Source: a virus. From it: DNA of 64,000 nt. The stretch spans positions 1 through 64,000 of the IMG/VR virus record IMGVR_UViG_3300024999_000034, one strand, 5' to 3'. This document shows, one piece after another, positions 25,056 to 62,433 of this stretch. Both the position numbers and the translations under genes were made by a program. A model generated the notes under the pieces. That model saw only the letters and a program-made list of their open reading frames with translations, made no database searches and had not been told where the DNA came from. Position 1 is the first letter of the stretch. Every line of letters starts with the position of its first letter.

Positions 25056-25060
25056 ATTAA

Positions 25061-31160: not shown

Positions 31161-31173
31161 TGATGAATCCTCC

Positions 31174-33897: not shown

Positions 33898-33927
33898 GTT
33901 AATACACTCTCCTCTATTTTTCTTTTT

Positions 33928-34137
33928 CTAATTTATATCTTTGCATTCCACAACATCAATATTATAATATTTTGCACAATCTCCACAATAATAATTATTA
34001 TCTATTTTCCCTACAAAAATGTCATCAGTTCTAATTAATTCTTCACCACAACAATTACATGTTTCAGAAATATACTGATCTAATTCTGACTCACTGTCAT
34101 CTACCTCCTTATGAGATACTATTTTTTGTGTCTTCAT
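33928..34137 (-). CDS. Small zinc-finger protein
   Basis: CNCC...CGDC. Confidence 0.6.
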   Translation of the reverse strand: MKTQKIVSHKEVDDSESELDQYISETCNCCGEELIRTDDIFVGKIDNNYYCGDCAKYYNIDVVECKDIN

Positions 34138-34555
34138 GTTTTGTCATTTCCTCCGTTGTATCTAAAAACTCACCAATAGAATCAGTCAGATCAACCAATA
34201 TCATCTCAACATTAGTATCTAATAACTCAAATAATGTTTTTTCAATTGTAAAATTTCCAACAAAATATGATTCAACTTTTGTATTATAAGATTCTCGCCC
34301 AATAATTAATTTACCAAAACCTTTATATTCTTTTCCAGTAATATATTCTACTAATCTTACTTCAATTAATTTATCAATTGTATTTTGAGAAGCGAAAATT
34401 GTGTCTAGGATTTGAGTTATTGATTTGGTTGAATTATCTATTAGTGATGTGATTATGTAATTTGGTTTGTTTGGTTTGTTTGATTTATTTGATTTATTTG
34501 ATATGAATGGGATTTCTGATATGGATACTGTGCCGGAGAGTGTTAATTTTTGCAT
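34109..34555 (-). CDS. Hypothetical protein
   Basis: AGAAGGAA RBS, 148 aa. Confidence 0.55.
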   Translation of the reverse strand: MQKLTLSGTVSISEIPFISNKSNKSNKPNKPNYIITSLIDNSTKSITQILDTIFASQNTIDKLIEVRLVEYITGKEYKGFGKLIIGRESYNTKVESYFVGNFTIEKTLFELLDTNVEMILVDLTDSIGEFLDTTEEMTKHEDTKNSIS

Positions 34556-34822
34556 TTGTTTTTCCTTCTTTCTGCTATTGAATTTATTTTTGTATTTATT
34601 AAACTTTTACTAGATACATGTCTCTTGATTATATAATTATCCTAATATTTTCCAGCCCTAGAAACCGCCTGTAGCAATGGTTTAAAATTCTCATTTTTGG
34701 AGAATTAAAATATTTGAACCTAGAATCAATCAGATAATTTTTTGTGAATACTTGTTAGTTGTGACATATTGAACGTCTTATAATGAGTTTTAAATGCATT
34801 ATTTGTATTTTTATTCATATTC

Positions 34823-35185
34823 TTAAATATTATTTTTATCTTCTTTTAATTTTGCTTTTAATTTATCTGCTTTAAGTTTCTCTTTGTATATTTTCAATTG
34901 TTCATTTTTCCCTTTAATTTGGAATTTTAACACAGAATGAATTTTATCTATGTCTTTTTCGTCCACAAGATAGACTTTTTCTTCACAATCAATATGTAAA
35001 GTATATTTAACTCCTAATTCATCAAACTGTGGCAAAACTATATTTGTTGTGCTCTGTCCTTTTGGAAAATATATAGCTAGTGTTCCTTTATCATTATAGC
35101 GATAGGTTTCAGTTTGTGATTTTCCAAGCAAATAATTGTCTGATTCATTTTTAGTTGGTTTATTTTTGATTAAATCATAAGGCAT
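34823..35185 (-). CDS. Hypothetical protein
   Basis: 120-aa ORF. Confidence 0.55.
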   Translation of the reverse strand: MPYDLIKNKPTKNESDNYLLGKSQTETYRYNDKGTLAIYFPKGQSTTNIVLPQFDELGVKYTLHIDCEEKVYLVDEKDIDKIHSVLKFQIKGKNEQLKIYKEKLKADKLKAKLKEDKNNI

Positions 35186-35277
35186 ATGTATTGTATAGAT
35201 ACCGATATATTTTAGAATTATTTTTCACCTCCTTTCATAAATAAATATTTATTTTACTATTAACAAAAATAAACAAC

Positions 35278-37363
35278 TCAATATGTATTGTAACTATGAA
35301 TCAACTTCTTATTATTACATTCTTCACAAACTAAATGTACCCAATGCTCTGCAAAACTATCGTCTCCATAATAATTAAATTTTTCAATATGTTTAATTGA
35401 AGTAGAATTGCTGTGACAATTTTTGCATTCAATATGAAAACCAATTTCCATTTGTTTCTTTTCACCACCTCTCCTTGTATTCATTATACCATATTACTTA
35501 TTGAATTGTCAAATATTTATTTTACTATTTACATTCACATAAAATTCATCCTAATCATTTACTTCATTATATTAATCAATCTTCTCATATGTTCAATTGT
35601 ATCAAATAAATCCTTTAACATATCTATTCCATCTGCTCTATTAATAGCACCATATCTTTTACATAAATTTGCAAACTCACAATATTCTAGACTATCTTGT
35701 TTGCATTCCATGCATTTATTAGGATTTTCTTCATCTTCTGTGGCAGTAAATATTAGGGTTTTAAGTTTTGTTATTTCAGTTTGATTTAAGTACATTTTGT
35801 TTCACCTCCTTTTATCTTATTAAACTTACAAGTTTACTAAACACCAATCTTTTTATTTCTTTCCATAATTCATCACATAACTCAAAATCAGAATACTCGT
35901 ATTCTCTAAAAATATGTTCTCTAAATCCATCAATAATAACCGCTAGTGCAATAGTATTATGTTTTTCTAACGATTCAATCATAGTACCTATGGTAATCTG
36001 ACTTACAATTTCTTCAATAGCGTCATTTACATCTCTTGCTGATTGGTCAAACATCAACATACCTTTTATTTGTGCTACAAAATCAATTCTAAATAATTTT
36101 CCTAATTCACAAATAGGTAATGGTTCTAATCCAATTTCTTGTAATTGTCTTACAGTAATATGTTGTTTCATTATTTAATCCTCCCTCCCTAATCTACTAA
36201 CTCTATCAATCATTTGGTAAACAAACTCTTTCTTGCCCATATATCCATATTGCTCAATTGTTTTCTTTACTCCATCAAAATTATCTTGCTCAACATCAAA
36301 AACTATATTAAGAAGAATATTTAATAAATCAAGTACACTTTGTCTATCTCCTACGTCTAGATTATTGCCATAGTTTTTAATAGTATTTTTACATAATGTT
36401 ATTAATTTTAAAGCATCATCGCTTACTAAAAATCCTGCTTTTGTGACATTTACTTCAATATTATCTAATGATTGTAGTGCGTGTTTAATGTAATTGTTTT
36501 TATCCATGTTACTATCTCTCCTTATTAATTAATGGTATAGCTAAATTTAGTTCAATGATAAGAACCCCTCTACGGATGGAAATTATATTGGCATCTTCTA
36601 AAATATCTAGTATATTTCTATCTAAATCATAAAAATTTCTAACTTCATACCATTCTGGATCGCTTCTTTCGAGTAAGGTTCTTATTACATTTAACTCTTT
36701 TTCATTAAATTCGATAGTATGTATTGTTTTGCCATATTCTGTTATATATGTATCTTTCATAATATTCTCTCCTTATCCTAATAAATTTATTTCATTACAT
36801 CCAAAAGAAATTATCTTTATACCATTCACCTATATAATTTAATCTATTTGCTATACAAGTTGGGCAAAGCAATCCTGCATCCTCATGTAAAGTAGGATTA
36901 ATTAATCCCCATAAATGATTTGGTATTATTAAATCTGGAAACTCACCATATTTCATTCTACAATCATAGCAACATCCTTGTGGTCTTTCGTTGTCATTGT
37001 ATTTCCATTTGTGTTTGTAATTGTTCAATTTTATTTATTTCACCTCCCTTTTACATCGTACAATTGTATAAATCCTTCATCTTATTTTTATATTAGTATT
37101 TATAATTGTTATTTACTTTCTTTATATTTATTGCAATCTTTAATAATTTGAATATTAATTTGCTTAATATTTTTACAATAGTTTTTAGGCCGTAATATAA
37201 ATTGCTGAATGTGTTCCAATACAAAGTAATGTCCTTTTTGATACCATTTACCAAGACCTATAAATTTTAAAGGATAGTAAGGTAAATAAGTTATAAAATA
37301 CAATATATAAGCAGGAACAACAACTAAAATTATGTACCACGTAGGGAATGGATTAAAAAACAT
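35278..37363 (-). CDS. Cluster of 7 short hypothetical ORFs (35278-35484, 35559-35795, 35812-36171, 36175-36507, 36512-36760, 36795-37028, 37109-37363), several with CxxC motifs, the last one membrane-like
   Basis: Each has an AGGAG(G)-type RBS and they are tightly packed on the minus strand. Confidence 0.55.
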
Positions 37364-37515
37364 GTATTTTACCTCCTTTGTGTTTATTTTATTGTTGGAT
37401 TTTGAGGAAGGGATAGGTATATTTGAGTAAGATGTTTTGATGTGTAAAATATACCCTCGTACCTCTTGTATATATTGTAACATTTTTTGGTGTGGAAGTC
37501 AAGGATATTTATTTA

Positions 37516-38910
37516 TTAATTTATACGTGGTTGAGAAGACATTGCTTCATAATCTTCTTTATACATCCATTTGAAACCTCCTGCCGTTTTATCATTATTA
37601 TGTTTCCAACAACAATAACTAATATTATTAATATCTAATTCTCTTTCCGTTTGTGCAATACCATCCCATTCTTTTATAAACTCATTGTCTTTAGATAATT
37701 GAATTATCTTTCTTCTGTTTTTATTGTAATCACAAAGTCCTAATTCTACACCTTTATTAAGATATGAAACAACTGTAGTATTAGCCAATTCCATTATTTT
37801 TGCTATCTTTGGACTACTTTTTATACCGCTATTCCAATGATCACAAGCTGTTTTAATTAATACTTTATTAACATACTCCTCACATTTACCCCAATCTATA
37901 ATAGATAAGTCAAATAAATCATTTAATTTACTTTGCATAATATTGTCCTTTATAAAATCCATATTACTTTTCAGACAATCAATTCTTATTACTTCTATGC
38001 CTTTCTCATTTGAAAAAGCATCTCTTATTTCATCATATTCTTTAGTTTCTTGTGCTGATTGTTTAGTTAATGTATTAGTATTCCCATGTCCAAGACGACC
38101 ATCCATTTCTAAATCATATTTTACATTGTTAAATTCAAAATAAAAATCAAATCTATAATCATGAAAATTGTATTCAGGTATAAAATCAACCCCTAACTGC
38201 TCTAATAAACTAAATCCAACCTTGTTGCCAAAAGATATCTTATCTCCGCATCTTGGACAACTAAATCCAAAAACAATTAAATTATGAGGAACATAAGACT
38301 TTTCATATCCACAATCTGGGCAAACATATATTTTATACTTATCACTTCCTTGAGTCATTTCATAACCTTCTTGTGGATTTTTAAGTAGTTTTGCTATATT
38401 GGGATGGGTTGCCCATAAGTCGTTATATCCAATTAAAATCTTTTTTGAAGGAACACAGCATACATTACAACCCTTACCATTATTTAAATCATTTTCACGT
38501 AGTTTGTCTTCGTTTCCACATTTTAAACATTTATATGTATAACCTTTTACATTATTTGTCGTATTAGATATTTTAATATGTTCTAATATCTGTATATCAC
38601 TAAATTTTAGATTAATTATATCACCAATATTATGTCTATAATCTGTTACAACCTTACTTAGCAAATTTCCTATTGCACATGTTGAAAACGCATATGCATT
38701 TATATGTACAATTCTATCATTGTATTTAACCTCTAAATAATTCTGACCTGATTTTTTATATTGATTAATTATTTCTGCCTCTCCCTCAATATCATCATAT
38801 ATAAACTTAACACTATATCCAATACTTTTATTCCAATCTATACATTCTTTATTTATGTTAGCACCAAAACCCATTTTCTTTGGCAATTCTTCTAAAAATA
38901 CTTTTTTCAT
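37516..38910 (-). CDS. Free-standing endonuclease: zinc ribbons, PD-(D/E)XK-like domain, NUMOD1
   Basis: CLKC..CNVC, NDLWATHPNIA, CPDC..CPRC, RFDFYF...LEMDGRLGH, TAGGFKW. Paralog of 62434..63882. Confidence 0.7.
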   Translation of the reverse strand: MKKVFLEELPKKMGFGANINKECIDWNKSIGYSVKFIYDDIEGEAEIINQYKKSGQNYLEVKYNDRIVHINAYAFSTCAIGNLLSKVVTDYRHNIGDIINLKFSDIQILEHIKISNTTNNVKGYTYKCLKCGNEDKLRENDLNNGKGCNVCCVPSKKILIGYNDLWATHPNIAKLLKNPQEGYEMTQGSDKYKIYVCPDCGYEKSYVPHNLIVFGFSCPRCGDKISFGNKVGFSLLEQLGVDFIPEYNFHDYRFDFYFEFNNVKYDLEMDGRLGHGNTNTLTKQSAQETKEYDEIRDAFSNEKGIEVIRIDCLKSNMDFIKDNIMQSKLNDLFDLSIIDWGKCEEYVNKVLIKTACDHWNSGIKSSPKIAKIMELANTTVVSYLNKGVELGLCDYNKNRRKIIQLSKDNEFIKEWDGIAQTERELDINNISYCCWKHNNDKTAGGFKWMYKEDYEAMSSQPRIN

Positions 38911-38915
38911 TAATT

Positions 38916-40751
38916 CTATTCCTCCTCTTTATTATTTAAATCAATATCATTTATTACATTATGTAATTCGTGTCCTATGTCTTTATATCTCATTAGCAAA
39001 TATCTTTTAATACTATCGCTGAGTTCTATTTGGTCCTTACAACGACTTATTGCAACATATATGATAAAAATTTCCTCTGATATATCTTTTTTAGCTTTCT
39101 TTTTATCATTATCATTAAAATCCTCTTCTTTTTTAAGATATTTATTTCTATAAGTAACTTCTAAATCTAGATGATCATTACTAATATAAACAGGAATGTC
39201 TATAGTAAGACCTTTCGCCTTGTGACATGTCGAAAATATAATATCCGCTTTACTCTTATCTGTTACAGTATTATTTTTTATTCCATCTACAATATCAATA
39301 ATTCTACTTCCATATTTATCTACCATTCTTATTAAAGATAATATCTCGATATCCTCAATTTCCTCTGAATATTTTTTCATGGCCTCAAAATTATCAAATT
39401 TAGCAAATAATTTATTTTTGGTAGGATGCCCTTGACTAAAATAGTAACATTGTTTCAATGACTCGAAGGAATAAGATGAAAAACCTCCAACAAAGAAAAG
39501 TTTCTTATTTTTATCTTCATATAAAGCATCAGCTATTTCTGCAAATATGTATGCATTGGTTCTACACAAACAAGCATATGGTTTAGATTTATCTATATGA
39601 TCCACAATTGTTTGTTTAGTATTAAATCCTTTCATCTTAATATCATCACCAATGAAGTCTGAGATGATAAGATTTTCTATATGAGCAATGTTGTTAGATA
39701 CTCTAAATGATGTTGTGAGTTTGTATTCTTTTGCATCAAACATAGGCATGATATTCACAGCATTTTTCCAACCATAAATTTTTTGATAAGGGTCTCCAAC
39801 CACACAGATGCCCTTTACATTAGAATTTTTAAGTATATCAAACATCATAATTGACGAATCTTGACACTCATCAAGAAGAATAATGTCGTATTTACTCGAT
39901 AAATCAGTTTTACTAAGATGGAACATCTTCAAATAATCATCGTGTGAAATTTTGATACTGTTTTTATATTTCTTTTTTAATTCCCATAATCTAGTACAAC
40001 AAGATAATATCCTATCTCTCATCTTATCTTCTTTAAATATCTCTAATTCTTCAAATTCTTGAGCAGACGATAAAACATAGGCAGTCATCATAGCATTAAT
40101 TTTAACTGCTAATTCCATTTCCCTATCCCAATTTAGATTTAAATCTTTTATAATATCAACTACTCCATAATTAAAGGTTAATTTATCTTTATAGAATTTT
40201 CCACAGTAAAAATAAGCTAGTGAATGTATTGTACGAATTTCTGTTCCTTTCTGTGATTTAAATAATTCTTGACTCTCTATTTGCATAGATTTATTATACA
40301 CTAAATATAATATCTTTTTAAATGGTCTACTTTTGGCATAGTAATACAAAGTCGTTGATTTACTTGAACCCGTTAACGCACTAACCTTAACCCTATCCTC
40401 TGTACTAAAGATAATATCCTTCTGTTCCTTCGTCAACCAATATCCATCTTCTGACATATAATCAGACATTTCTACTTCTACATCATCAAATTGTTTATTA
40501 TAAAATTCTGTAGATAATACATTTGATTCTGATTGTTGGAATATTGTTTTATCTTCTTTTATTATGAGTTTCATTTTTGCTTCGCAATTACTTACATTGG
40601 ATTCAGTATCTTTAGCATGAGAGTAAAATTGTTTTTGCGCACCAAAGTTTCTAATTAAAATTTCATGGCAAACAGGACATGTATAAATATTATTAGATGT
40701 TGACTCTATGATATCTACAAGTTTATTATTTTGGTCATACGCTTTTTTCAT
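38916..40751 (-). CDS. UvrD/REP-like SF1 helicase with N-terminal Zn finger
   Basis: Walker A ALTGSSKSTT, ILLDECQD, VGDPYQKIY, TSFRV, LCRTNA, STCHKAKGL, YVAISR. Confidence 0.85.
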   Translation of the reverse strand: MKKAYDQNNKLVDIIESTSNNIYTCPVCHEILIRNFGAQKQFYSHAKDTESNVSNCEAKMKLIIKEDKTIFQQSESNVLSTEFYNKQFDDVEVEMSDYMSEDGYWLTKEQKDIIFSTEDRVKVSALTGSSKSTTLYYYAKSRPFKKILYLVYNKSMQIESQELFKSQKGTEIRTIHSLAYFYCGKFYKDKLTFNYGVVDIIKDLNLNWDREMELAVKINAMMTAYVLSSAQEFEELEIFKEDKMRDRILSCCTRLWELKKKYKNSIKISHDDYLKMFHLSKTDLSSKYDIILLDECQDSSIMMFDILKNSNVKGICVVGDPYQKIYGWKNAVNIMPMFDAKEYKLTTSFRVSNNIAHIENLIISDFIGDDIKMKGFNTKQTIVDHIDKSKPYACLCRTNAYIFAEIADALYEDKNKKLFFVGGFSSYSFESLKQCYYFSQGHPTKNKLFAKFDNFEAMKKYSEEIEDIEILSLIRMVDKYGSRIIDIVDGIKNNTVTDKSKADIIFSTCHKAKGLTIDIPVYISNDHLDLEVTYRNKYLKKEEDFNDNDKKKAKKDISEEIFIIYVAISRCKDQIELSDSIKRYLLMRYKDIGHELHNVINDIDLNNKEEE

Positions 40752-41153
40752 TTATTTTATTTCTCCTTCAAATTCATTTTCCATATTATTTATCATAATT
40801 ATATTCATTGGTTTATCAATCTCATATACATTACACTTAAACAATTCCTTAATGTTTTTATTAAACATATTTTTAAAATCCGCACCACTCTTTTCACAAT
40901 GTAACTCTGTAATCTCATCAGTAGTAAGAACACTCTTATGTATCATAGTAAGTCCTTTATTTGCATTACTCTTATCTTTAGCAACCATTGATACACTATA
41001 GCAATCATCAAATCTCCAAGACTTAGGTTTAAGTATCATTGCAAACATTCCATCTTTTGTTTCTACAGCCAAAGTAATATCTTCGTCAGATTTCATAATT
41101 TTAACAAATTTTGATACGGTTTTTATTTCATTAAATTTATTATAATATAGCAT
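40752..41153 (-). CDS. Hypothetical protein
   Basis: 133-aa ORF coupled to its neighbours. Confidence 0.55.
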   Translation of the reverse strand: MLYYNKFNEIKTVSKFVKIMKSDEDITLAVETKDGMFAMILKPKSWRFDDCYSVSMVAKDKSNANKGLTMIHKSVLTTDEITELHCEKSGADFKNMFNKNIKELFKCNVYEIDKPMNIIMINNMENEFEGEIK

Positions 41154-42496
41154 TATTCATCATCCTCTTCTCTTTTGTTTCTTTCATTCAATTCATCCTC
41201 AATCTGTTGTAAAACATCTATAGGTATTTGTGCATGATTTAAATCTTCTATTTCTTGAAATGCTTTTTGTTCTTCAATTGTGAGTGGCTGTTTATATTCT
41301 AATGCTTTCTTTTTCAGTAATAATGTTTCAAGTTCTTCTATGGTAAAATCATCAATGGATTTTTCGGCATTATTTATCTTTTGTTGAATACTTCTTCTCA
41401 TATTAGATATTGATTTATTAGTATGAATCAACCCCTTCTTGCTAACTTCTAATTTTAATTGTCTATTAAAATTGTCTTTTGCATAATATTTACCTATGTA
41501 TGTTGTGCAATATTTGTATTCAGTAGTTAGATAATCATTATTATAAACTATTAAATTAAGTTCATTTTGCAAAACATTATTGTATCCTTGGATAGTTCTT
41601 GAATCTGTAACCAAACCATTTAATTGATTCTGAGTTAAATAACCAAAGTTTTTACTATTACTTGATACTCTACAACAAGCAATAAAATATCTAATCAGAC
41701 TAAATTTGTTAGAATTATTATGCTGTAAATATTTAAATATACAGTTTATATCTCTATCAAAAACTTTAAAATACGAAGATATAGGTATGGTTGAAAGTTC
41801 TACTAAGAATAAAGTGTTTTTATTTTTGATGATTGATTTAATAGTAAATTTTATATTATTTTTATCATAATTCTCATCACATAGGTTATATACTTTAGCA
41901 ATATAACCTTTATTTTCTAATCCAATTAAAGAGTTTTTAATCGTAGCAACTAAATTTCTATTATTAGAAACATCTACTCTCATATAATCACATATCATTT
42001 GGACTGAGCACAATGAACATGATGTACGCTCATTATAATTTCTCAATAATAAAATCAATATTGTAATTTCTTCATTAGTAATACTTGTGTCATCATAAAT
42101 ATCGTTCGGTAATTTAATGAAACTATTTACTAATAAAGGCAATTTATCTTGCTCTGCTTTAAGTATTTTATCTAGAGTCTTTTCTATATTATAACCAGTG
42201 TTTATAGAATCATAATGATTAATACACATATTCTCAATTTTTATCAATTCGGTAGATTCTCTAAGTCCTAATTCTACTTCCTCAGTAATATCTTCCAATA
42301 CTTCAAATGTGAAGCAATCCTCACCAAATCCGTTTCAATCTTCTTGTAATTTATAGTTGTAATGATTATTATTGTCGAGGTATCTTCTATGTGTTTTCCA
42401 ACGATTATTAACATCAATGCTTTTGCCGATATAAACTTTTCCATTCTTAGTATTAGTTATTTTATAAACACCAACTATTTTATTTAACTTAATCAT
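41153..42496 (-). pseudogene. GIY-YIG nuclease fused to tandem wHTH domains, with in-frame TGA at codon 54
   Basis: ATG at 42496 with AGAAGGAG RBS: MIKLNKIVGVYKITNTKNGKVYIGKSIDVNNRWKTH...LQED*NGFGEDCFTFEVLE continues in frame into the 41153..42298 ORF. Confidence 0.85.
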
Positions 42497-42599
42497 ATTT
42501 ACTTAACTCCTTCTTATTCTAAAAATTTATTTTTAACACCCTTTTACCTTTACATGCATTTCAGCCATTTTACCAATTTATAGATTTCTAATACATAGA

Positions 42600-42930
42600 C
42601 CCTAATGACCATTTTGGACGTTTTTATAGGCATACGATAGAACATAGTATCTACTAGGCTTACAAGGTTTTAAATGATATAATAATACCCTATAATCTCA
42701 TACATAGGTTTTCATGTATGCCTAAGAATTGAACCAAAGTGGTCATTAGGGTGGCGTTACGTATGCCTAAATTTTGAGCCTTTTTGTCATTTTTATAGGC
42801 ATCTAATTAGAGAGTTAATTCTACATTACTATTAGAGATATAATTCTACAAAATCATTAAAGATTAAATTCTACAATTTTTGGGCATATAAAATACATGC
42901 GTATTTTAATACCCTATTTAAAATTTTGTT
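42600..42930. other. Candidate iteron-type replication origin
   Basis: TAGGCATAC-like motif at 42627, 42716, 42761, 42796, 42881. 17-bp IR at 42601-42617 and 42734-42750. AATTCTACA x3 at exact 25-bp period (42817, 42842, 42867). Directly downstream of a Rep-like gene. Confidence 0.65.
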
Positions 42931-42942
42931 TTCTTTTGTTTC

Positions 42943-43983
42943 TTAAATTCTTATCATATTATTGCTCCTTATGTATTCATATAATTGATAATCTTCCTCC
43001 TTTAAACATTTTTCATATTGCTTAATTGTGTCTTCATAATAATATCTTATATAAAACATTTTCTTTCCTTCTATTTTATCACTTTCATTTGATAGAGCTA
43101 ATTTTTCAAATCCTTTAGATTTTATGTAATCAAATTCCTTTTGCTCTTGTTTGTTAAAAATAGGATTTAAATAATAATAAATATACTCTGGTCTTTCATA
43201 TAATTTTATTTCATATCTATTATTTCCTCCTTTAAATTTTCTTTGATGGTCATCTTCATCAATATAAGTTATTGGTTTTGATTTGTACATCTTTATTAGA
43301 TTATATTTACCATTAGATAATTTCTTTGCAAATTTACTTATTGTATCATCATATAATCCTATGTATTTAGATATTTCTTCTCTGTCTGGGAAAGCATAAT
43401 GAGTTCTATAATATAGAGGAATGATTTCACCAGTTGAGTAATTTACTTTCTCCCATGCAAGATAATAATTGTATTTAGTTAATATTACACAATAGATAGC
43501 CCATTCTGTAGGAGATAATGTAGTTATTATTTTATGTACAAATTCACAAGGTATAGGAGAATAACCATTTTTATCTATATGATCAATCAATTTATTATTA
43601 TATCCTATATAGAATTTTATTAGCTCATTATTATTTAGAGTAATAATATCCTTATCAATAATAATTACTTCATGTAATATTAGTTTTCCTAAAGCATCTT
43701 TAATTTTATTAGGTTTTAGATTTGTTTCTTCAGATATTGAATTTACAGTAGTAGAAACATATTCACTCTTTATTGCTCTAGACATTAAATACCATAGAAT
43801 ATACCAACCATCTATTGTATACTTATCCTTGATGTGTGATTCATTTATAGATTGATATTGTAATTTAATAAATCTAGTGTAGTCTATACCCCTTATATCA
43901 AATGTCTTGTCAAAGTATATGTATCTGGAATCGGTTGAGTTATAATATTGAGATAGGTCTTTTAGAGATTCTACTTTATTCAT
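42943..43983 (-). CDS. Putative replication initiator with tandem winged-helix domains
   Basis: TTVNSISEETNLKPNKIKDALGKL and LSPTEWAIYCVIL...AFPDREEISKYIGL resemble HTH_36-type Rep domains. Confidence 0.6.
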   Translation of the reverse strand: MNKVESLKDLSQYYNSTDSRYIYFDKTFDIRGIDYTRFIKLQYQSINESHIKDKYTIDGWYILWYLMSRAIKSEYVSTTVNSISEETNLKPNKIKDALGKLILHEVIIIDKDIITLNNNELIKFYIGYNNKLIDHIDKNGYSPIPCEFVHKIITTLSPTEWAIYCVILTKYNYYLAWEKVNYSTGEIIPLYYRTHYAFPDREEISKYIGLYDDTISKFAKKLSNGKYNLIKMYKSKPITYIDEDDHQRKFKGGNNRYEIKLYERPEYIYYYLNPIFNKQEQKEFDYIKSKGFEKLALSNESDKIEGKKMFYIRYYYEDTIKQYEKCLKEEDYQLYEYIRSNNMIRI

Positions 43984-44016
43984 ATTTTACTTAATTCCTT
44001 CCTTATTATGTAGTTG

Positions 44017-44223
44017 TTATTTACTCCATTGATTTAGTATTGTATCTAGTTTATTATTTCTTAGAAACATCCAATAAGTTCTATTTGTTTTTGGATTTAT
44101 TCCTTTTGCTATATTTTCTATATTATGATCTCTAATGAAACGTAAAAGATTAATACTGTAGCAAAAGTAATATGGATTGTTGTTTGGAGTATTCACATTC
44201 AAATTCATTTTTAAGTCCTCCAA
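44017..44223 (-). CDS. DUF5659-like small protein
   Basis: YFCYSINLLRFI...GINPKTNRTYWMF. Confidence 0.55.
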   Translation of the reverse strand: MEDLKMNLNVNTPNNNPYYFCYSINLLRFIRDHNIENIAKGINPKTNRTYWMFLRNNKLDTILNQWSK

Positions 44224-44229
44224 TATATT

Positions 44230-47080
44230 TTGATATTTATAATTTGATTTATTGGAATAGGATAAAAGATAACAGGGGAACGAAAATTAAATAAAACGAA
44301 TTGAAATTCTTATTTATTTAATTTTATGCTACGCAGAATATATTTATTTCTCTACTTATAATACTTATGTAAAACCTGCTATATCAATAATATTAATTTG
44401 TATTTTTCATTGCAATAAAATCATCAATAATTTATTTTTCATTTCCTCCCTCTTACTAAGTATACCATAATATCAAAGACAATGTAAATATTTATTTATA
44501 TATTTGTAAAAGAATTTATAATAAAATTAATTTAAATCTACCATGATAAAAATTTACCAGAGCAAATAATTTTAAAAACCTTGAAAGCATTGTTATGATT
44601 ATGTTACAGAGATTTGTTCGGATGAAGTGTATATAGTATATAGCACCTCATCCATTGTAATTGTTGTAATACTAGTGAGAGTTAGGATGTAGGGATTATT
44701 TTGTTTTGAGGTTGTGGTAAATTTTTATATGTTAGTAGAAGTATGATTACATGGATTTATTATTCATAGTGATTATTCCTTTCTAGATATTAATTTTTTA
44801 TTCTTTCAGAGATTTTCACCTCTGTTAACAGTATATCATATTGGAAATTATAATGCAAGTATTTATTTTATTATTTATTAGATGGAAGATTGAGATTTTT
44901 AATTTATGCAAAATAAAATTTAATTTTTTCAAGATAAAAATATCATAAAAAATATTTTCACAAATTTTATGGAGTCGTATATGGGAGATAATTGTATCGC
45001 TTTATAATGTAAAGATACGCCCCCGTATAGTAGAAGGTATATGATATAATGGATGAAAGTGTTGTTAGAGTAGGGATTTATGAGAGGATTATATTAATGG
45101 ATGTTTTAATTTTTATAGATGAATTTATTGTAATTATTGTTTTTGGAATTTGTTCGATTGGATTGAAATAGATTTTTGGGATTTGGGAATATTGGATGGA
45201 GATTTAGAGGTGAAAGTTTATATATTTTATGGAATTTGTGTATCAGATAATTGTTGTTAGAGTGGTGTTTATTGGTATTTTGGTGAGATTTATTGTTAGA
45301 TAGTTTTAGTGATAATTGGAGATAAATTTATAGATTTTATTAAATTTTTATGATTTATTTATTAAATTTATTTGACTTTTGGATGAATTTGTGAATGAGG
45401 TTTTGAGAGGTGAGTGATTAGAAAATGTTGTGTTGATTATGTTTTTGCGAAGAAAATACGAAGGGGATTTGGGATAGAATTAGGTTGTATTGGAATTTAT
45501 TTTTTATTGAGGGAGAATTAGTATTGACAAATTTAAAATAGTATGATCGTATTCGTAAAATAAAATTACTGTCGATGAACATGTACTCTGCACATAATGT
45601 CGAACCATGTCGAAACATAATTTGTAATCCATGCCCCTATACCTGCATAGTTGGCATGGAATTTGAAAGTAAAGTCTGACGGTGATTTTTGCTATAGTCT
45701 ATGCTTATGACAAACTGAAAATAGTATGGGCCGGATATGGTGCGAACCCTGAAACCCTTACTATAGGCCGATTGTTCCTCTAATCTGAATGTAACAAAAG
45801 AGGGATGTGTTACATTCGATGAATAATTAGGGTTATAATGTGTCGGTCGGGATGTTTGGAGAGCTTAGAAGGGCAAATTTAGAGAGGAAATGATAGGAGA
45901 ATTAGAAAATGGTAATGTCCTGGGATTTGATTGGCTGCACTCGGCAATGATAATGTCGAATTGATTTTATCGGGTGAAATGAGAGAGATAATCAATTTAT
46001 TGGGCTTTGATGTTATTATCATAGGTGCAAAAAATTTTGTCGGTAAACTTTCGAGGCATATAACATAGGCGAAATGTTTGAACACTTTTGCAGTATCAAA
46101 AATATACCTAGTATATAAAAGATACTAACTATAATATCTATACTAACAACAAAAATTATACTAAGTATCTTTTATATACCAATTCAAAACTATCATATTA
46201 TACTATCACCACTACCTCATTACATGATCACAATGATCACATTCAATACACCACTAAAATGTACATACATTGTGACTACTTATATCCTACTGATTCACTA
46301 AACATTAATCCCAACTTAATTACTATACATTATACTACACTAAACTACTATGACTTAATTCATACAACTTTACTATACATTAATCCTTACTAATCTACCA
46401 CACTATAATCCATACCATTTCACTATGTATTACTCTAACCACAACAAACCTTAAAAACTTAAAACATCTCTAATCAAATTCCATACCAAAAACCCACAAA
46501 ATACGACACACCCGATACCGTGTAGAAAAATTTTACTCTAAGACACAAAATAAATATCTACATACCATTATAACCCTCAATACCTCAAACCTCTTAAAAG
46601 CCCCTTTCTGTGCCTCTGATGCAATATATTTATATTTGCATTTGTACACATATTCAACTCTATTTTCAAGTTGGCATACATATTGCATAGTATACACATC
46701 ACAACCAATTCTAATAAATACAGCACAATAAGCACAATACACTGCAATCCGGTTGACTCTAGATATCTGACAGATATAATGCTAACCTCTATTACTATTG
46801 ATCACACTCTATTTATTACCTCTTATCTTATCCATTATTGCTTCTATTTTTATCCCTGCTATCATTATACCACTAACATATCTAAACCTCTTAAAACACC
46901 ATCCTATAGCCTTACACATAAGCATATAACACACTAACCTCATTGTACTAAATTTTTCCCTGTATAATAGGAAAGAATAATCCAAACAAATCTCATAATC
47001 CATCTCTAACCCACTAGACAGATGCCTATTTAAATGGTAAAATAAATAAACAAAATAAATCAATAAAGGAGTTGCTTAAC
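44230..47080. other. Non-coding divergence region between the two transcription arms
   Basis: No credible long ORFs. Plus strand is G/T-rich at ~44.6-45.5 kb and C/A-rich at ~46.1-47.0 kb. Confidence 0.7.
44830..44858 (-). promoter_or_regulatory. SigA-type leftward promoter
   Basis: TTGCAT-17-TATACT with an extended -10 TG. Confidence 0.6.
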
Positions 47081-56499: not shown

Positions 56500-56528
56500 T
56501 TGACGGATTGCTGTTTAAGTATTAAAAT
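56500..56528 (+). promoter_or_regulatory. SigA promoter
   Basis: TTGACG-17-TAAAAT. Confidence 0.7.
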
Positions 56529-56534
56529 AAAGAC

Positions 56535-56880
56535 AGTTAAACAATACATAAATAAAAACTTACTAGGAAGTAGTTAGTGAGTTAACCCCATAAAGTTTAC
56601 AGGTTTTCCAGTTTGACCTTTAAAAACTGAGGGATAGGACAATGGAGCAGATTGCCTACCTAAAAGCTCTTTGAAAACTGAATAAAGCGAACTAGCACCA
56701 TAAACCTTCAATACTACTTTTTGGATTGACGCTTGCGCTTATAAAAGCAAGTTGAAGGAGTGGGAAAGATGAAATACAAGCGCACGGAACGCCTTCAGCT
56801 AGTTAAATTGTCCCTTACAAAAACTTGCTCATCTTGTCTTAATTTCTGCTCTCTTAAAGTAAAAAATAAAATTAAGAAAG
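56535..56880 (+). ncRNA. Structured ~340-nt leader containing a Firmicutes rrn-type boxA
   Basis: gctctttgaaaactgaata at 56666-56684. Stems aacttacta/tagtgagtt, cagttt/aaactg, aactagc/gctagtt, ccttcaa/ttgaagg, cttgc/gcaag. Confidence 0.6.
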
Positions 56881-56892
56881 TGAGAAATAAAA

Positions 56893-58101
56893 ATGTCTGA
56901 AAATCAAAAAGAATCTATTTTAAAACTTGCTAAAGGTTCTTGGCAGCGTTCAATCCTCAGAGACTTATTATCTTATTCAGCCATAACAAATCCTATCAAA
57001 TCGCTTAAAGGTAACGCTAAATCTTATTCAAAACGTTATCAAGTATCATTTTTTGCGTTGCTTTTTAGAATCGAAAAAGCCGGATACACCATAACAGTCA
57101 AACCTGGCCCACTTGGTGGACAGTGGGGATCTACATACAGTTTATCAGTATAAAGTTAAAAATAATTATTCTAAACACTTTCAAAATAGAGAGTGGAAAT
57201 TAAGGCAAGAAAAAAGTATAATTGTAAGGGAATCAAAACTATCTTTTATCTCTTATTGCTTTTCTTGTTTTTATTTTTACCCTCTTAATTAAGAGGGGGA
57301 AAATAAAATGACTAAAACAAAAATTAATCAATTATTTATTGAATCTTGTGATAAACTAATTGGAGAACTTGCTTACACAGATATGGTAAATCACAAAAAA
57401 ACATTATCTAAAGCAAAACAAAGAAATTATCAAGGAGGTTATTCACTTTCCGCAAATACTCAATACCTGCTAGAAACTAAAAAAGCGTATATAGCAGGAA
57501 CAATGAGTGAAGAGGAGTCAAAAGCTATATTCCTTCGACAAAAACTATGCGGAAACGTGCTATAACAAATTGTCTATAACAATCGTAGAGGGTAAACACA
57601 AGGACAAGGAAAGCAAAATTAAAGGGATTAAAAAAGACAATTCATGGTAGTTGAAGTGTCTTTTTCTAAATTATATCATAATAATTATTAAAATATGGTA
57701 TAATTTAGAAAGGACATTTAAGTCCCTAATTTAAGGAGGTTTTTAAAATGACTAACAAAAAATGGTTTTGTACTCCTGATGCTGAAACGAGAAAAGGAAT
57801 TGCTGGTTATAGATTTTACCTGTCAATGAAGAAAAATTATGAGCCGGATGTCGAACTTTCTCCTTCGCCTTGGGTTCATGCTGAAGCTTTGGAGTCTAAA
57901 AATGATTTTTTCTTTACTTCGCGTGATATTGCTTATCCAGAAATTACGAAACGATTAGGAGAAGTAGAAAGATTAATATTACATCCTTGTTATGTATGTA
58001 ATATTACTTTTGACGAAAAACTACTTTACCCTGTTGTAAATGATAATGACGAAAAAACAGGGGAACATATTTGCCATGAATGTCTAAATAATGACGACTA
58101 A
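56893..58101 (+). CDS. Three short hypothetical ORFs (56893-57153, 57308-57565, 57748-58101)
   Basis: RBSs present, the third has CxxC..CxxC. Confidence 0.6.
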
Positions 58102-58203
58102 ATTAATTAACCCTTAAAATTGGTTGTAAGTGTACGCAAGTTAAACATGCTATAACAAATGCTTGCGTATAGTTGGGAATCAATTATTAAGGAGTGGTAT
58201 TAT

Positions 58204-59505
58204 ATGAAAGAAATGCTAGTAAAAACTTTCGGAATTGTGGGTTTAGTTGGTCAACTAAAATCTGGTCAAATCAACAGGGATGCTGAAATGCAAAGATCGT
58301 TTGTGTGGGGTAACAAGGAGCAAACAGACTTAATTGATTCTGTTTTTCAAGCTCTAACAACTTATATCCCTCCCTTGATTGGTGCTGAAACTGAGGTTGA
58401 AGTTGAGGTAAAAGGGAAAATCGAAAAAGTCATTGACCTTCTTGACGGAAAGCAGCGCAGTACAACCTTGGAAAAATTCTTGAATGATGAAATAAAGTTG
58501 GGCCATAACATTCGGCCTGTTGTCATTGAGAATGAAGACGATACTATTGAAACTTACATAGTTGCAGGGAAAAAATGGAGCGAATTACCGGACAGAGCAA
58601 AGCAAGTTTTCAAGAATTGTAAGATCCAAATGGTTTATTTTAAGGACATGACACAACAGGAAAGAGAATTGCAGTTCATCAAACTCCAGGGAGGGAAGAA
58701 ACTAAGTAATGCAGAAGTAAACAAGGTTCGCATTGGTGATGAAGTCAGAACATTTATCTATAAGCAATTAGCAACAGATTTATGGACTAAATTCATTAAT
58801 GTTTCTGCAAACCGCGAGGTTAAATTTGAGACAATGCAACAAGTACTAATGGTTATGACTAATTCCTTTGACTTATCCGGCAAATCATTACAAGCATTTT
58901 CAGAGGATTCTATCATGGTCGATGCTGAAACCATGGTAAAAGTTGAGAGAGTCACGGAATACCTAAATGAAGTTGTAAAATTCATTAAAAAATTCTCTTT
59001 ACCTACTGAACTTCAAAAACTTGAAGAATCAGAAGTAATCATCAAACTCGAACCTAAAGAGCTTAAAAAGTATCAGAAGCCTATAGAATATCTTAAGAAG
59101 GTTCATGTCTCAGTTATCTATAACACGGCACTCAAGGCCATTCTGAACGATATTAGCGCAAAGGATTTTGCTAAATTTGTTGCTAAATTCTTCTTTGATG
59201 TTCCTGCAAGGTATAAAAGATATACAGAATCAGATACTTCTAGTGCATCAAGTGGGAAAATTAGAATTGAGGAAATGGATAAGGCACTGGTCAATGAGTT
59301 CAAAATTGTGGCAAAGGTTACTGAAGTAAAAGTTGAAGAGGTTCAAGATGTTGAGCCAGTAATTGAGCAATGGGAACAACCTTTACAAGTTGAAAACCTC
59401 GAATCTATCATAACAGATGAACCTGAAGAGTTCGGCAATAATGAAGAAGATAAGCAAGACGCTCAATTAATTATTGATATTACAAATAATTCCAATGTTG
59501 CTTAA
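58204..59505 (+). CDS. DUF262 (ParB/Srx-fold, GmrS-like) domain protein
   Basis: MQRSFVWG...LIDSV...YIPPL...LLDGKQRSTTL...FIKLQGGKKLS, with AGGAG RBS before the ATG at 58204. Confidence 0.8.
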   Translation: MKEMLVKTFGIVGLVGQLKSGQINRDAEMQRSFVWGNKEQTDLIDSVFQALTTYIPPLIGAETEVEVEVKGKIEKVIDLLDGKQRSTTLEKFLNDEIKLGHNIRPVVIENEDDTIETYIVAGKKWSELPDRAKQVFKNCKIQMVYFKDMTQQERELQFIKLQGGKKLSNAEVNKVRIGDEVRTFIYKQLATDLWTKFINVSANREVKFETMQQVLMVMTNSFDLSGKSLQAFSEDSIMVDAETMVKVERVTEYLNEVVKFIKKFSLPTELQKLEESEVIIKLEPKELKKYQKPIEYLKKVHVSVIYNTALKAILNDISAKDFAKFVAKFFFDVPARYKRYTESDTSSASSGKIRIEEMDKALVNEFKIVAKVTEVKVEEVQDVEPVIEQWEQPLQVENLESIITDEPEEFGNNEEDKQDAQLIIDITNNSNVA

Positions 59506-59593
59506 TTAATCCTTGGTAGTTTTGAGCTTATGCGTTAAGATAATAACAAGGCTTAACGCATTGTCGGAAAAATTTAAAAGGAGCTGTATTATT

Positions 59594-60359
59594 ATGTCTA
59601 ATAATTGTTTTGTTGCAATTGTAAGAACATACAATGATAATAGTAAAGAGTATGTTCTTACGACAAAAAATGATTATGAGAAAGAATCTAAAATTAAAGA
59701 CTTTAAAGAAGAATTGTCTTATTTTAAAACCTATATTGAGGCATGTGACTATATTTATTCTTTAAGTTAATTTTCCGTTTAAATCATGTCTTTATGGTAT
59801 TAAGTTTTTAGAATAAATTTGAAAGTTGGAAATCAAATGAAAGAATTTAATTACTTAGGACTTACTTTTAAACCGTTGAGAACTCTAAAGGGTAAATCGT
59901 CTGATTTCTTTGCAATATCAAAAAAACTAAATGATATTAAAATTACTCCTAAAAATTGGAATCATACGGAATTTTATAAATCAGCAGAACAAAACGGAGC
60001 AGGAGAAATTGACTTATTTGAGGTAAATGGGTTAGTGGTTATTCCTTGTCAAAATTGTTTGTTTCAATATAAATAACTAGTATATATGTCCTCAGAGCGT
60101 TTCAGCCATAACAAAACAGGTTGAAACGTTGTCGAGGGTATATAAATTAAAGGAGTCGAAACAAATGAAAAAGTGCAATATTTGCAATGACCATTTTGAC
60201 GATCAATTTATTTCTCAATTCGAGACATTAACCTACACCAAAAAAGTTCTTCAAGTTTGTTTCTATTGTAAAGAAGATGAGTCAGAATATGACGATGGCG
60301 AAGAAATGGAGTGTATCAGGCAAGGTGATTCAATTTATTATCCTTCCCACTTGCTATAA
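59594..60359 (+). CDS. Three short hypothetical ORFs (59594-59770, 59819-60076, 60129-60359)
   Basis: Short ORFs separated by conserved-loop hairpins. Confidence 0.55.
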
Positions 60360-60462
60360 CAAAAGCTTTAATTATTCTCTAGGTCGTGATATAATGTAAA
60401 TATAAATATTACGGCTTGGAGAGTATTTAAGACTCTTCAAAATTTAAAGAAGCGTGTTACAT

Positions 60463-62355
60463 ATGACCAAATTATTATTGAATGACCAACTAAAAGGAGT
60501 AGAACTTTATTTTGAAGGAAAGCCATCACAAACCATCATCGACAGTTTAAAAAGCAATGGTTTTCGTTATCATGGTGGAAAAGTTTGTTGGTATGCAAAA
60601 CAGTCTGAAAAAACTATGGCAGAAGCTCAAAAACACACTTTAGAGCAAGGAACAGAACAAACACAAGTTAAACCATTAACACTCGTTACACCAGTGGTTA
60701 AAGCACAAAAGGAAGTAAAAAATAATATTATTCTTCCTTTGTGGGATCTTACACAATGGTCAGATATTCAAGTTGACAACAAACAAGGCACAAAATCAAT
60801 TGCATCAGAAATGAGAAAGCATGTCAGGACTCGTTTCCCTATGTGTAAATTTTCAATCACTAGTGACTATTCCAGTGTTTCTTTCTATATTGTTGCAAGT
60901 CCTTACGATCAAGAAAGTGAATATTTAAAAGCGATAAGGTTATACTGTGATAACTTAATCAAAGCTTATCGGTATTGTACTTGTGACGATCCATACGGAG
61001 ACTATGGAAGTTCATATAATTTTTATGGTTCTCATACCTCAATTGATTACCATTACAAGCAAACTGAGCAAACAGCAGAAATAAAATCTGATATGTTAGA
61101 CTTTGATGCTAAAAAAGCATTGGAAGAAACTAAAGTAGAAGAACAAAAGGAAAAGGATTATCAATTGTATTTAGTTCAAAAAGAACTAGACAAAAAATCC
61201 TATGAAGAATCAGCTAAGAAAGAAGCCGAACAAGTTCAAACTATCAATGCTAGTATCTCTATAACAGACTTAGCAAGAGAACAGCAATACTTTGTAATTG
61301 GTTCACAGTTTGCACACTTGAACAAGAATAACACCTTAGACCAATATAAAGAGGACGTAGAAAAAGGCGAATTCTATTTACAAAATGTCAAGATTACAAA
61401 AGAAATCCATTTCCAAACTGAAGAAGCTCTATCCTACTTCTCTAACATGTTGCTTAATGATTTTGATTTTCTTGCCGAAACTGGTGGAAGTTATACAGAC
61501 GATGTTCGTATTAATTCCATGACGGATTATAACAACATGACTGAGGAAGAGCGCAAAACTGTTGTATTTAATCTTTATGGAGTCGGAATTTACTATAACA
61601 ATGAACTCAAATTCGTTGTGGACGCTCAAGGCCATTCATACGCCAGATATGTTGGGTTAATTGAAAATGTTACCATTCAAAAATCTGACAATGTAGATCA
61701 ATTAGTTAACCATGAACAAATAAAAGAATTAAAGGGAAAAGTTGAAACCCTTGAGGATTTATCAGTTGAAGCAATAACTTGTAATCCTTCTTTAGTTGGA
61801 ACATGGGACAAAGAGAATTGGAACGAATACAAAGACAGGATGAAACAGATTTTCAATAAAAACTATTTTAAATTAACCAAGTCTATCATTCAGCAAATAC
61901 CTGAAGAGTCGGAAACCTTAAAAGGTTGTATGTATAGACTGCTCAAGGAAGTTGATGGAATTCAGGAACAGTTTAGGAATGCAGACTTGAAGCAAGGCCA
62001 GAAAGTAACATTATTCTATATTACTGATTTTGGAAGCGTAGCAAATCAAATGGTAACGCTCGATAGTGTTGAGTATACTAAATACGCGCAGTATGATAAT
62101 GCAGTAAAATTGACTTGGATACCAAAAGGAAAAAGGAAACAGTATTACAATTTCTTTTACAGCACTTTGTTAGTTTATGAGGGATGGTTAGAACTTCCTC
62201 AAAGTGTTCTGCATGAAGTGAGCGAATCTAATGATTTTGTCATAACAAAAACTAAATATTTGAGCTGTGATAAAAAGCAGTATGACGAGATTTTAGACCA
62301 TTATGAAGTACAGGGACTTAAACCAGTGATAAATACCTATAAACCTACATTCTAA
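60463..62355 (+). CDS. Large polyvalent protein with LPD29-like domain
   Basis: IASEMRKHVRTRFPMCKFSITSDYSSVSF resembles LPD29. N-terminal VELYFEGKPSQTIIDSLKSNGFRYH. Confidence 0.6.
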   Translation: MTKLLLNDQLKGVELYFEGKPSQTIIDSLKSNGFRYHGGKVCWYAKQSEKTMAEAQKHTLEQGTEQTQVKPLTLVTPVVKAQKEVKNNIILPLWDLTQWSDIQVDNKQGTKSIASEMRKHVRTRFPMCKFSITSDYSSVSFYIVASPYDQESEYLKAIRLYCDNLIKAYRYCTCDDPYGDYGSSYNFYGSHTSIDYHYKQTEQTAEIKSDMLDFDAKKALEETKVEEQKEKDYQLYLVQKELDKKSYEESAKKEAEQVQTINASISITDLAREQQYFVIGSQFAHLNKNNTLDQYKEDVEKGEFYLQNVKITKEIHFQTEEALSYFSNMLLNDFDFLAETGGSYTDDVRINSMTDYNNMTEEERKTVVFNLYGVGIYYNNELKFVVDAQGHSYARYVGLIENVTIQKSDNVDQLVNHEQIKELKGKVETLEDLSVEAITCNPSLVGTWDKENWNEYKDRMKQIFNKNYFKLTKSIIQQIPEESETLKGCMYRLLKEVDGIQEQFRNADLKQGQKVTLFYITDFGSVANQMVTLDSVEYTKYAQYDNAVKLTWIPKGKRKQYYNFFYSTLLVYEGWLELPQSVLHEVSESNDFVITKTKYLSCDKKQYDEILDHYEVQGLKPVINTYKPTF

Positions 62356-62433
62356 CGCTTATAACAGCCATTCTATGCAGTTTGTGAAGGTTCTGCCATA
62401 ACAAAAACCTTCAATACATACTAGGAGGGCAAA

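Follow-up and report, generated by a model that had tools for sequence, protein, structure and literature searches.

Background

Short single-stranded RNA words that are read in loops or leaders include the GGA of CsrA, the GGAG of T4 RegB in early mRNAs, and lambda boxB. Polar words over-represented in DNA are exemplified by Chi and KOPS, and two-barrel phage polymerases use short promoters that are read on the template strand. Ribozymes at phage gene boundaries have been suggested to function in the processing of polycistronic RNA (PMC6765202). In SPbeta, the master repressor MrpR binds the operator SPBRE, a 15-bp double-stranded DNA element found at about ten promoters (PMC10516654).

The word described here, H-AUAACA-R, is displayed in hairpins that occupy the same slot as twister, hammerhead and pistol ribozymes and RAGATH motifs, namely the stretch of a long phage operon that separates a stop codon from the ribosome-binding site after it. 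In the present phage this slot also holds two twisters and one pistol-like element. Unlike those elements, the motif hairpins have neither a conserved catalytic core nor an Rfam family, but present a 7–8-nt loop word on arbitrary stems, and the word also decorates ribozyme loops and is enriched inside ORFs. As with CsrA, RegB and boxB, a short word is carried on variable stems near ribosome-binding sites within one class of transcripts; the word itself is different, however, with far more copies per operon (58–111) and with a reverse complement that is avoided in the opposite arm. It resembles SPBRE in being a dispersed intergenic repeat of an SPbeta-type phage, but SPBRE is 15 bp long and sits at promoters of lytic genes, whereas the word spans 7–8 nt on one strand, lies off promoters and in RNA-type hairpins, and has many copies within ORFs. 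With Chi, KOPS and the two-barrel promoters it shares its shortness, its strong strand polarity and the purging of the opposite orientation, and it differs from them in its restriction to a single operon, its hairpin loops, its RNA-sense folding bias and its failure to track the polymerase lineage.

A strand-specific word in a terminator-free operon

The window analyzed comprises the first 64 kb of the 180,838-bp genome of an SPbeta-like phage that encodes a YonO-type (two-barrel, YonO-like) RNA polymerase. Genes on the + strand span 46.7 to 180 kb, and the motif zone (56.5–78.3 kb) constitutes one long accessory-gene operon of ~21 kb. A consensus scan placed a sigma-A-type promoter, TTGACG-17-TAAAAT (56500..56528, + strand), at the head of the zone, just downstream of the last + strand terminator (56168–56191). 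The 243-nt leader contains a hairpin and the boxA-like word GCTCTTTGAAAA (56666..56677, + strand), which occurs once in the genome, and the first ORF of the operon (56769..56900, + strand) encodes 43 amino acids, 13 of them Lys or Arg, behind a strong Shine-Dalgarno sequence. No intrinsic terminator is predicted on the + strand across the zone. The 10 kb upstream contain 11 + strand terminators together with consensus promoters, and zero copies of the extended 8-mer motif.

The initial annotation had reported an 11-nt word, GCYATAACAAA, dispersed through this operon. All six exact copies were recovered, every one on the + strand, where shuffles predict 0.17, and the listed variants and four named stems were likewise found. 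The informative core is shorter, H-ATAACA-R. ATAACA is the top enriched + strand hexamer of the zone (58 observed vs. ~19 expected; z +8.8), and its extreme enrichment is specific to both strand and zone. The repeat is real and larger than first described: the cluster, which begins at 56,983, continues past 62.4 kb to 77,798, and this interval holds 24 of the 27 + strand copies of YATAACAA in the genome although the + strand genes extend far beyond it. Nearly half of the zone copies (26 of 58) lie within ORFs and show no obvious hairpin. Codon shuffling, under which the in-ORF copies remain enriched (23 vs. 8.7 ± 2.6), rules out codon usage as the cause.

Within the window, in-ORF copies on the + strand include GCCATAACAAA (56980..56990), the variant ccATAACAg (57088..57097), and further ATAACA hexamers between 59120 and 63061 (at 59120, 59410, 61261, 61328, 61529, 61595, 62242, 62531, 62710, 62737 and 63056). 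The reported overlap with stop codons holds for two sites, namely the first copy of a doublet with 14-nt spacing (57559..57582, + strand; stop codon of ORF 57308–57565) and the copy at 60353..60363 (+ strand; stop codon of ORF 60129–60359), which is followed by a separate 20-bp hairpin (60377–60425, + strand).

Hairpin display and folding sense

Large loops (11–25 nt) with one to three copies of the motif each are found on approximately 15 intergenic hairpins whose stems are unrelated. Upstream of the DUF262 gene, a two-tier hairpin (58112..58192, + strand; inner stem ~58133–58169) exposes cuAUAACAaa in its loop (58149–58159), and its outer helix pairs the Shine-Dalgarno sequence. A second hairpin, within the DUF262 gene (58475..58534, + strand), has ccAUAACAuu in its loop. 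The hairpin formed by tgcgttaag/cttaacgca (59531..59560, + strand) presents the variant loop auaAUAACAagg, with an outer helix that joins UCCUU to the Shine-Dalgarno sequence. The element at 60083..60144 (+ strand; z −5.5) consists of a 12-bp inner stem with one G-U pair, the loop gccAUAACAaaac and an outer stem. Two copies are found at 62357..62413 (+ strand), cuuAUAACAgcc and the loop cugccAUAACAaa of the hairpin tgaaggtt/aaccttca, and here too the Shine-Dalgarno sequence is paired.

Of the intergenic copies, 88% are enclosed by a stem of 7 or more pairs, compared with 60% for intergenic positions drawn at random. At 0.73, the probability that the motif is unpaired does not exceed that of hexamers of equal composition (0.69). 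Loop display beyond that of any A-rich word was not found, and Shine-Dalgarno occlusion is not specific to the spacers that carry the motif. Searches of Rfam with permissive E-values (even E below 5) returned no family for the motif hairpins themselves. The + sense folds better in 13 of the 18 motif-bearing intergenic regions, with a mean difference of 4.2 kcal/mol and z values down to −5.5. In hand-picked hairpin windows, 56 G-U pairs were counted in the + (mRNA) sense vs. 26 in the other. A G-T bias of the same kind is expected from single-stranded DNA of the + strand.

Ribozymes that carry the word

Just past the window, two twister-P5 ribozymes (RF02684) were identified with the Rfam covariance model at genome positions 66322–66387 (57.1 bits) and 66887–66958 (46.8 bits), both above the gathering threshold of 37.6 bits. 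Both have AUAACA in an enlarged P1 (closing) loop, at a position where the consensus loop has 4 nt. As twisters are RNA by definition, the presence of the word in their closing loops supports an action at the RNA level. These are the only two elements that pass the threshold, and the twister model matches none of the other motif hairpins. A pistol-like candidate (72808–72874), which ends at a motif doublet, has an alignable P1 stem, AUAAA linker and GU site, and scores 24.4 bits, below the pistol (RF02679) gathering threshold of 34.5.

Conservation in related phages

Searches of phage and plasmid DNA records, near and distant, revealed no close relative. The same strand-specific zone is present in five distinct related metagenomic phage contigs (G1, G2, G6, G7 and G8); a sixth contig mostly duplicates one of these. 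The G1 zone holds 111 copies of the motif within 18.7 kb, and the dense patch of G2 is free of terminators and has a terminator at its end. The zones of G1 and G2 have zero proteins in common with the zone of this phage, and neither a gene of the zone nor a leader nor a small basic ORF was found to be common to all motif-bearing phages. Since the word is kept where the genes differ, a putative reader probably controls this operon.

In orthologues of the DUF262-upstream hairpin from three lineages, both the inner and the outer stems are unrelated while the CUAUAACAR loop is constant, and the doublet AUAACAgcAUAACA is preserved atop three different stems. The relative L022 retains the 60083..60144 hairpin with 89% identity and a compensatory C-G to U-A change, as well as the second copy at 62.4 kb with a compensatory G-C to A-U change; it also retains the 59531..59560 hairpin, from which the motif has been lost. 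The proposal in the initial annotation that a conserved loop is presented at the RNA level on variable stems is supported by this replacement of stems in three lineages, together with the folding bias toward the + sense and the twister loops.

The boxB-like and parS-like parts of the initial interpretation, which is partly supported overall, fare less well. A full lambda N/boxB-type system of processive antitermination, in which a boxA leader and the small Arg/Lys-rich first product would load RNA polymerase via the hairpins, is compatible with the boxA-like word at 56666, with the 43-aa basic ORF as first gene and with a 21-kb operon devoid of predicted intrinsic terminators. The boxA-like word is absent, however, from G1 and G2, the basic ORF is present in this phage only, with no counterpart at the start of the zone in relatives, and no Arg-rich N-like protein is conserved with the sites. 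In place of the one or two GNRA-like pentaloop hairpins of the lambda system there are ~15 hairpins with long, non-GNRA-like loops and 58 copies of the word, many of them in-ORF, in a zone without terminators to override. We consider this reading very improbable. The suggestion that the sites are parS-like DNA elements for the zone-encoded DUF262/GmrSD_N (ParB-fold) protein derives from the position of its gene among them, and is disfavoured. The zones of G1 and G2 are even denser and lack a DUF262 homologue, the sites are asymmetric, non-palindromic, confined to one strand and spread over 21 kb including ORFs, and the folding bias favours the RNA sense; a parS site, by contrast, is a palindromic or iterated double-stranded DNA element that accompanies its ParB-family protein. 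To this proposal we attach almost no weight.

Avoidance of the word in the opposite arm

The late and replication arm, which runs in the opposite orientation (600..46100, − strand), is purged of the word in the zone orientation. On the + strand of this region, ATAACA occurs 6 times where 23.8 copies are expected (rank 2 of 1534), and HATAACAR occurs 0 times, compared with 15 on the − strand. In the late/replication arms of six contigs (~308 kb), 7 zone-orientation 8-mers were counted vs. 94 in the opposite orientation, with the same strand bias in all six phages. Among hexamers other than homopolymers, TGTTAT is the one most strongly avoided on this arm's sense strand in the three phages ranked. 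Zone and avoidance co-occur across the phages compared, and Bacillus phage BUCT082 has neither the motif zone nor the reverse-complement avoidance. The avoidance follows the DNA strand, and a model acting on RNA needs an extra assumption, namely that tagged antisense RNA or seed matches are avoided.

A polar signal read on DNA rather than RNA would account for this pattern, in which a dense one-way array adjoins a divergent junction and the same orientation is purged on the other side, and also for the enrichment of in-ORF copies. The signal might stop, pause or start the two-barrel (YonO-like) RNA polymerase on its template strand; it might serve a host helicase-nuclease that enters from pac or the injected end, as a polar site of the Chi kind or some other; or it might be a lagging-strand signal. 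Chi sites attenuate the host AddAB/RecBCD enzyme in one orientation, and what is seen here of such behaviour is the polarity. Known Chi sites are G-rich, which speaks against a Chi-like site. For the polymerase there is precedent in related two-barrel phage enzymes, which transcribe single-stranded DNA (bioRxiv 10.1101/2020.03.07.982082); the promoter of YonO is not known (PMC5467207). G6, G7 and G8, however, share motif and zone with a polymerase that is only ~25% identical, while that of BUCT082 is 48% identical and no motif is present. The start of the late operon has no motif copy, and neither the covariation nor the unit-end siting expected of a phage polymerase promoter or terminator was found. 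Loops of 11–25 nt on bulged, G-U-rich stems make poor cruciforms, and Shine-Dalgarno pairing and ribozyme loops make sense solely as RNA. Across the remaining early arm, this phage shows depletion of the motif and G1 does not, which argues against a genome-wide polarity. A signal on DNA is possible, if unlikely.

Another reading of the avoidance is that the operon RNA acts as a sponge or regulator through its many loops, which as antisense seeds pair with Y-UGUUAU-D in host or phage targets, the late and replication mRNAs of the phage being 'anti-targets' that avoid the seed match. The word purged from the late mRNAs in three phages is indeed the exact reverse complement, the loops are pre-organized and often hold two or three copies, and the word is retained through changes of stem and gene. 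Against this, a seed of 6–8 nt is short, a target set was not found, the genome lacks a complementary loop cluster, and UGUUAU is not avoided by the other early-arm mRNAs (37 vs. 45; 20 vs. 24.5). The seed model appears improbable. As specific partners, a phage tRNA was rejected, the genome having no tRNA genes, as was a complementary-loop RNA in the 24–25 kb non-coding region, which has no + strand copies.

Taken together, the word and the reverse complement that is purged could form a single two-part code that keeps the divergent transcription programmes apart, a speculation that we rate as rather unlikely. In one version, 50–110 AUAACA seeds would capture a single-strand-binding factor or a complementary RNA of host or phage origin, with the essential late and replication genes evolved as anti-targets; in the other, the word on the template strand would stop or start the two-barrel late polymerase. 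A strand bias that serves to evade Type III restriction was rejected, since the flip in orientation at the zone borders creates head-to-head pairs, and a late-promoter motif common to the relatives was dismissed for lack of conservation. A strict 9+5–7+9 search did not recover a previously noted family of 24-bp palindromes.

Proposed role of the tag

The reading that we favour, with moderate confidence, is that the word labels the RNA of this one operon for a reader in trans and so acts on translation, processing or stability. H-AUAACA-R would tag in cis the RNA of a long, terminator-free accessory ('early-type') operon and be recognized as a single strand by a trans-acting factor common to these phages, most likely a host protein or a phage protein that is not encoded by a zone gene. 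Intergenic tags would be exposed in loops at the tips of the hairpins that separate cistrons, the twister closing loop among them; within genes the tag is simply enriched. Binding of the reader may set the fate of cistron-sized pieces of the transcript, by opening or closing helices that occlude Shine-Dalgarno sequences, by processing, and/or by protection from decay or termination. The motif, its confinement to one strand and one zone, its display in hairpins, its persistence through stem turnover and the RNA-sense folding bias are observed; the action as RNA, the trans-acting reader and the effect of that reader are inferred. As candidate readers, the PIN-PhoH protein (25804–27075) was rejected, as relatives do not conserve it, as was the 274-aa neighbour of the polymerase, which gave no family or Atlas lead and is not conserved in G6 and G7. 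A search of the literature for this word in phage hairpins returned nothing relevant.

Accessory and anti-defence operons of phages are hypervariable and their regulation is mostly obscure. Here a 7–8-nt word persists across unrelated zone genes and decorates self-cleaving ribozymes, and no word is more strongly purged from the essential genes than its reverse complement. The word makes such operons recognizable from sequence alone, provides a handle, as pull-down bait or through point mutations, on a new factor that reads RNA or DNA, and offers a tractable system for the role of ribozymes and hairpins at phage gene boundaries. Should either version of the two-part code prove true, SPbeta-like phages would have a regulatory grammar that spans the genome and has not been described before, and phage operons that bear ribozymes would gain a function open to testing.

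Strand-Specific Enrichment of the Word

The six GCYATAACAAA sites reported in the initial annotation are all present; each lies on the + strand, the expected number being 0.17, and the stems named there were found in the sequence. The cluster that it placed at 57–62 kb exists as well, and the array runs past the end of the window. The virus record is a single sequence of 180,838 bp with 28.8% G+C, of which the window comprises bases 1–64,000. On the + strand, 24 of the 27 genome copies of YATAACAA lie between 56,982 and 77,797, and the 21 copies on the − strand are evenly spread. ATAACA is by far the most enriched hexamer of this zone, an accessory-gene operon at about 56.5–78.3 kb, with 58 copies against the 3 expected from the rate in the remainder of the + strand gene arm; TATAACA occurs 31 times against 0.7 at that rate. 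ATAACA also ranks first within the zone under a third-order Markov model (z +8.8). Position counts extend the word to H-ATAACA-R, in which position −1 excludes G and 84% of copies have a purine after the hexamer.

The zone copies are divided between intergenic sequence (32, or 8.4 per kb) and ORFs (26, or 1.4 per kb). Within ORFs, frame 2 would give TAA, so the copies are confined to frames 0 and 1; their enrichment persists after synonymous-codon shuffling (23 vs 8.7 ± 2.6).

The zone starts with a promoter, TTGACG-17-TAAAAT (56500–56528, +), followed by a 243-nt + strand leader that carries a boxA-like word, GCTCTTTGAAAA. No + strand intrinsic terminators were predicted from 56.2 to 84 kb, and the 10 kb before the zone hold 11 of them, together with several consensus promoters and no copy of the extended 8-mer motif. 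That upstream region (46600–56350, +) consists of successive small genes, the majority of which have a near-consensus sigma-A promoter and an intrinsic terminator to themselves, in sharp contrast with the terminator-free zone downstream. Genes of the zone include a Dam-like + DUF4942 DNA methyltransferase (63875 to genome position 65476, +), 81% identical in the syntenic relative locus L022, which, with a DUF262 protein and an LPD29 polyvalent-type protein, lends the zone an anti-defence flavour. A 482-aa HNH/homing-endonuclease-like gene (62434–63882, +) has three paralogues, at 37516–38910 (−), ~100.3 kb and ~151.5 kb; it is missing from the otherwise syntenic L022 and is, therefore, probably a mobile insertion.

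Hairpins and Ribozymes Displaying the Word

About 15 intergenic hairpins with unrelated stems hold one to three motif copies each in loops of 11–25 nt (~58.15, 59.54, 60.11, 62.40, 65.5, 65.68, 66.34, 66.91, 68.15, 68.78, 69.29, 69.75, 70.34, 73.76 and 74.07 kb). Stems of 7 or more pairs enclose 88% of the intergenic copies, compared with 60% of random intergenic positions, and the motif is no likelier to be unpaired than other hexamers matched to it in composition. The statistically robust claim is, therefore, that the word is enriched and lies in real hairpins, not that it is unusually unpaired. Among 18 whole spacers, selected symmetrically between strands, 13 fold more strongly as + sense RNA, with z-scores down to −5.5; in hand-picked hairpin windows, G-U pairs are twice as common in the + sense.

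Just past the window, two consecutive intergenic gaps each hold a type-P5 twister ribozyme immediately 5′ of a ribosome-binding site (genome 66322–66387 and 66887–66958, both +), with Rfam scores of 57.1 and 46.8 bits against a gathering score of 37.6. In both, ATAACA copies fill the closing loop of a long stem, an enlarged P1 loop that has 4 nt in the family consensus. A pistol-like element (genome 72808–72874) scores 24.4 bits, below the cut-off of 34.5; it stops exactly at an AUAACAaAUAACA doublet, which adjoins the Shine-Dalgarno sequence, and the G-U position at which cleavage is predicted precedes that doublet by 5 nt.

Conservation in Related Phages

Two IMG/VR contigs, G1 and G2, of 120 and 71 kb respectively, encode a polymerase 71% identical to that of this phage and have a strand-specific motif zone adjoining the divergent junction. 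The G1 zone spans 18.7 kb and has 111 copies, of which ORFs contain 66, with the same hairpin-loop architecture; G2 has a dense motif patch devoid of internal terminators and bounded by a terminator at its end. No homologues of the zone proteins of this phage were found in the G1 and G2 zones. Three further contigs, G6, G7 and G8, have zone genes 66–81% identical to those described here, and the motif is present there too.

Ahead of the DUF262 gene, three lineages have an element with wholly different inner and outer stems around a constant CUAUAACAR loop, and the pairing of the outer helix with the Shine-Dalgarno sequence is retained. Compensatory changes occur in the 60.1- and 62.4-kb hairpins, and the doublet ATAACAgcATAACA is retained on three different stems; in an orthologous comparison, the 59.5-kb hairpin is retained without the word. 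The intergenic evidence points to a function in the + sense transcript, given the co-varying stems, the G-U use, the Shine-Dalgarno pairing and the placement in ribozyme loops. The proposal that the sites are parS-like and bound by the DUF262 protein in their midst is, against this background, scarcely credible.

The divergent junction of G1 (72.3–75.5 kb) is a mostly non-coding region of ~3 kb that folds far better in the zone sense (−462 vs −374 kcal/mol over 2.2 kb), and may thus be a large structured leader RNA. At 17.7–25 kb of G2, the opposite-orientation 8-mer is locally enriched, with 10 copies over 7.3 kb that lie antisense to called ORFs.

Avoidance of the Word outside the Zone

Late and replication genes occupy the − strand (0.6–46 kb), and the + strand carries the genes between 46.7 and 180 kb. 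Outside the zone of this phage, + strand ATAACA is depleted regardless of gene orientation, with 6 copies vs 23.8 expected in the − strand arm, where it ranks second among 1534 hexamers, and 15 vs 50.8 in the remaining + arm, a depletion upheld by codon shuffling. On the late-arm sense strand of this phage, G1 and G2, no non-homopolymer hexamer is avoided more strongly than TGTTAT (4 vs 16.4, 8 vs 23.6 and 11 vs 35.0 expected, respectively); a codon-aware test was also run. Copies of the 8-mer in the divergent arm, in the zone orientation vs the other, number 0 vs 15 in this phage, 3 vs 10 in G1, 1 vs 18 in G2, 2 vs 24 in G6, 0 vs 15 in G7 and 1 vs 12 in G8, the last being largely a duplicate of G6. 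The remaining early arm shows depletion in this phage and none in G1. Neither a motif zone nor reverse-complement avoidance was found in Bacillus phage BUCT082. Separately, AGATCT is absent from genome positions 46.6–56.7 and 78.3–180.2 kb (20.8 expected), which points to a restriction site of the BglII type being avoided.

With its many copies, its enrichment in ORFs and the reverse-complement purge, the array goes beyond a collection of boxB-like hairpins, and a strict N/boxB system is very improbable. At the DNA level, the opposite-arm purge would be that of a polar signal, a reading that we consider unlikely. An RNA tag recognized by a trans-acting reader has, in our estimate, an even chance of being correct. 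The purge would then keep the same tag off antisense transcripts of essential genes, or it may avoid seed matches to the displayed loops; the version in which the loops act as antisense seeds is itself improbable.

Candidate Readers

A portal protein is encoded in the window, as is a 941-aa single-chain RNA polymerase of the YonO-like two-barrel type (28335–31160, −), which matches Pfam RdRP PF05183. Its closest cultured relative is that of the Spbetavirus BUCT082 (48% identity), with SPbeta YonO and a Clostridium phage c-st protein as further kin. Next to it lies a conserved 274-aa protein of unassigned fold (27530–28354, −), which shares 60% identity with its G1 and G2 counterparts and 34% with that of BUCT082. 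Between this module and the head genes is a PIN_4 + PhoH-like fusion, a predicted RNase-ATPase (25804–27075, −) that is not conserved among relatives.

The phage polymerase is unlikely to read the word: the YonO-like enzymes of G6, G7 and G8 are only ~25% identical to that of this phage, yet the motif is present, and BUCT082 lacks it despite its more similar enzyme. No motif copy was found at the late operon start. No promoter has yet been defined for YonO (PMC5467207), and no common early motif was seen for a related virion polymerase (bioRxiv 10.1101/2020.03.07.982082). No zone gene, leader, boxA or small basic ORF was found to be common to every motif carrier. Because the carriers come from a few related samples, we infer that the word is most likely read by a host factor or by a mosaic phage factor encoded elsewhere than on the contigs compared.

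No published description of the word or system was found in the literature searched or in Rfam. The array behaves as an operon-wide tag. Self-cleaving ribozymes associated with phage genes have a proposed role in polycistronic RNA processing (PMC6765202); the zone operon is an instance of this setting, with the AUAACA word added on top.
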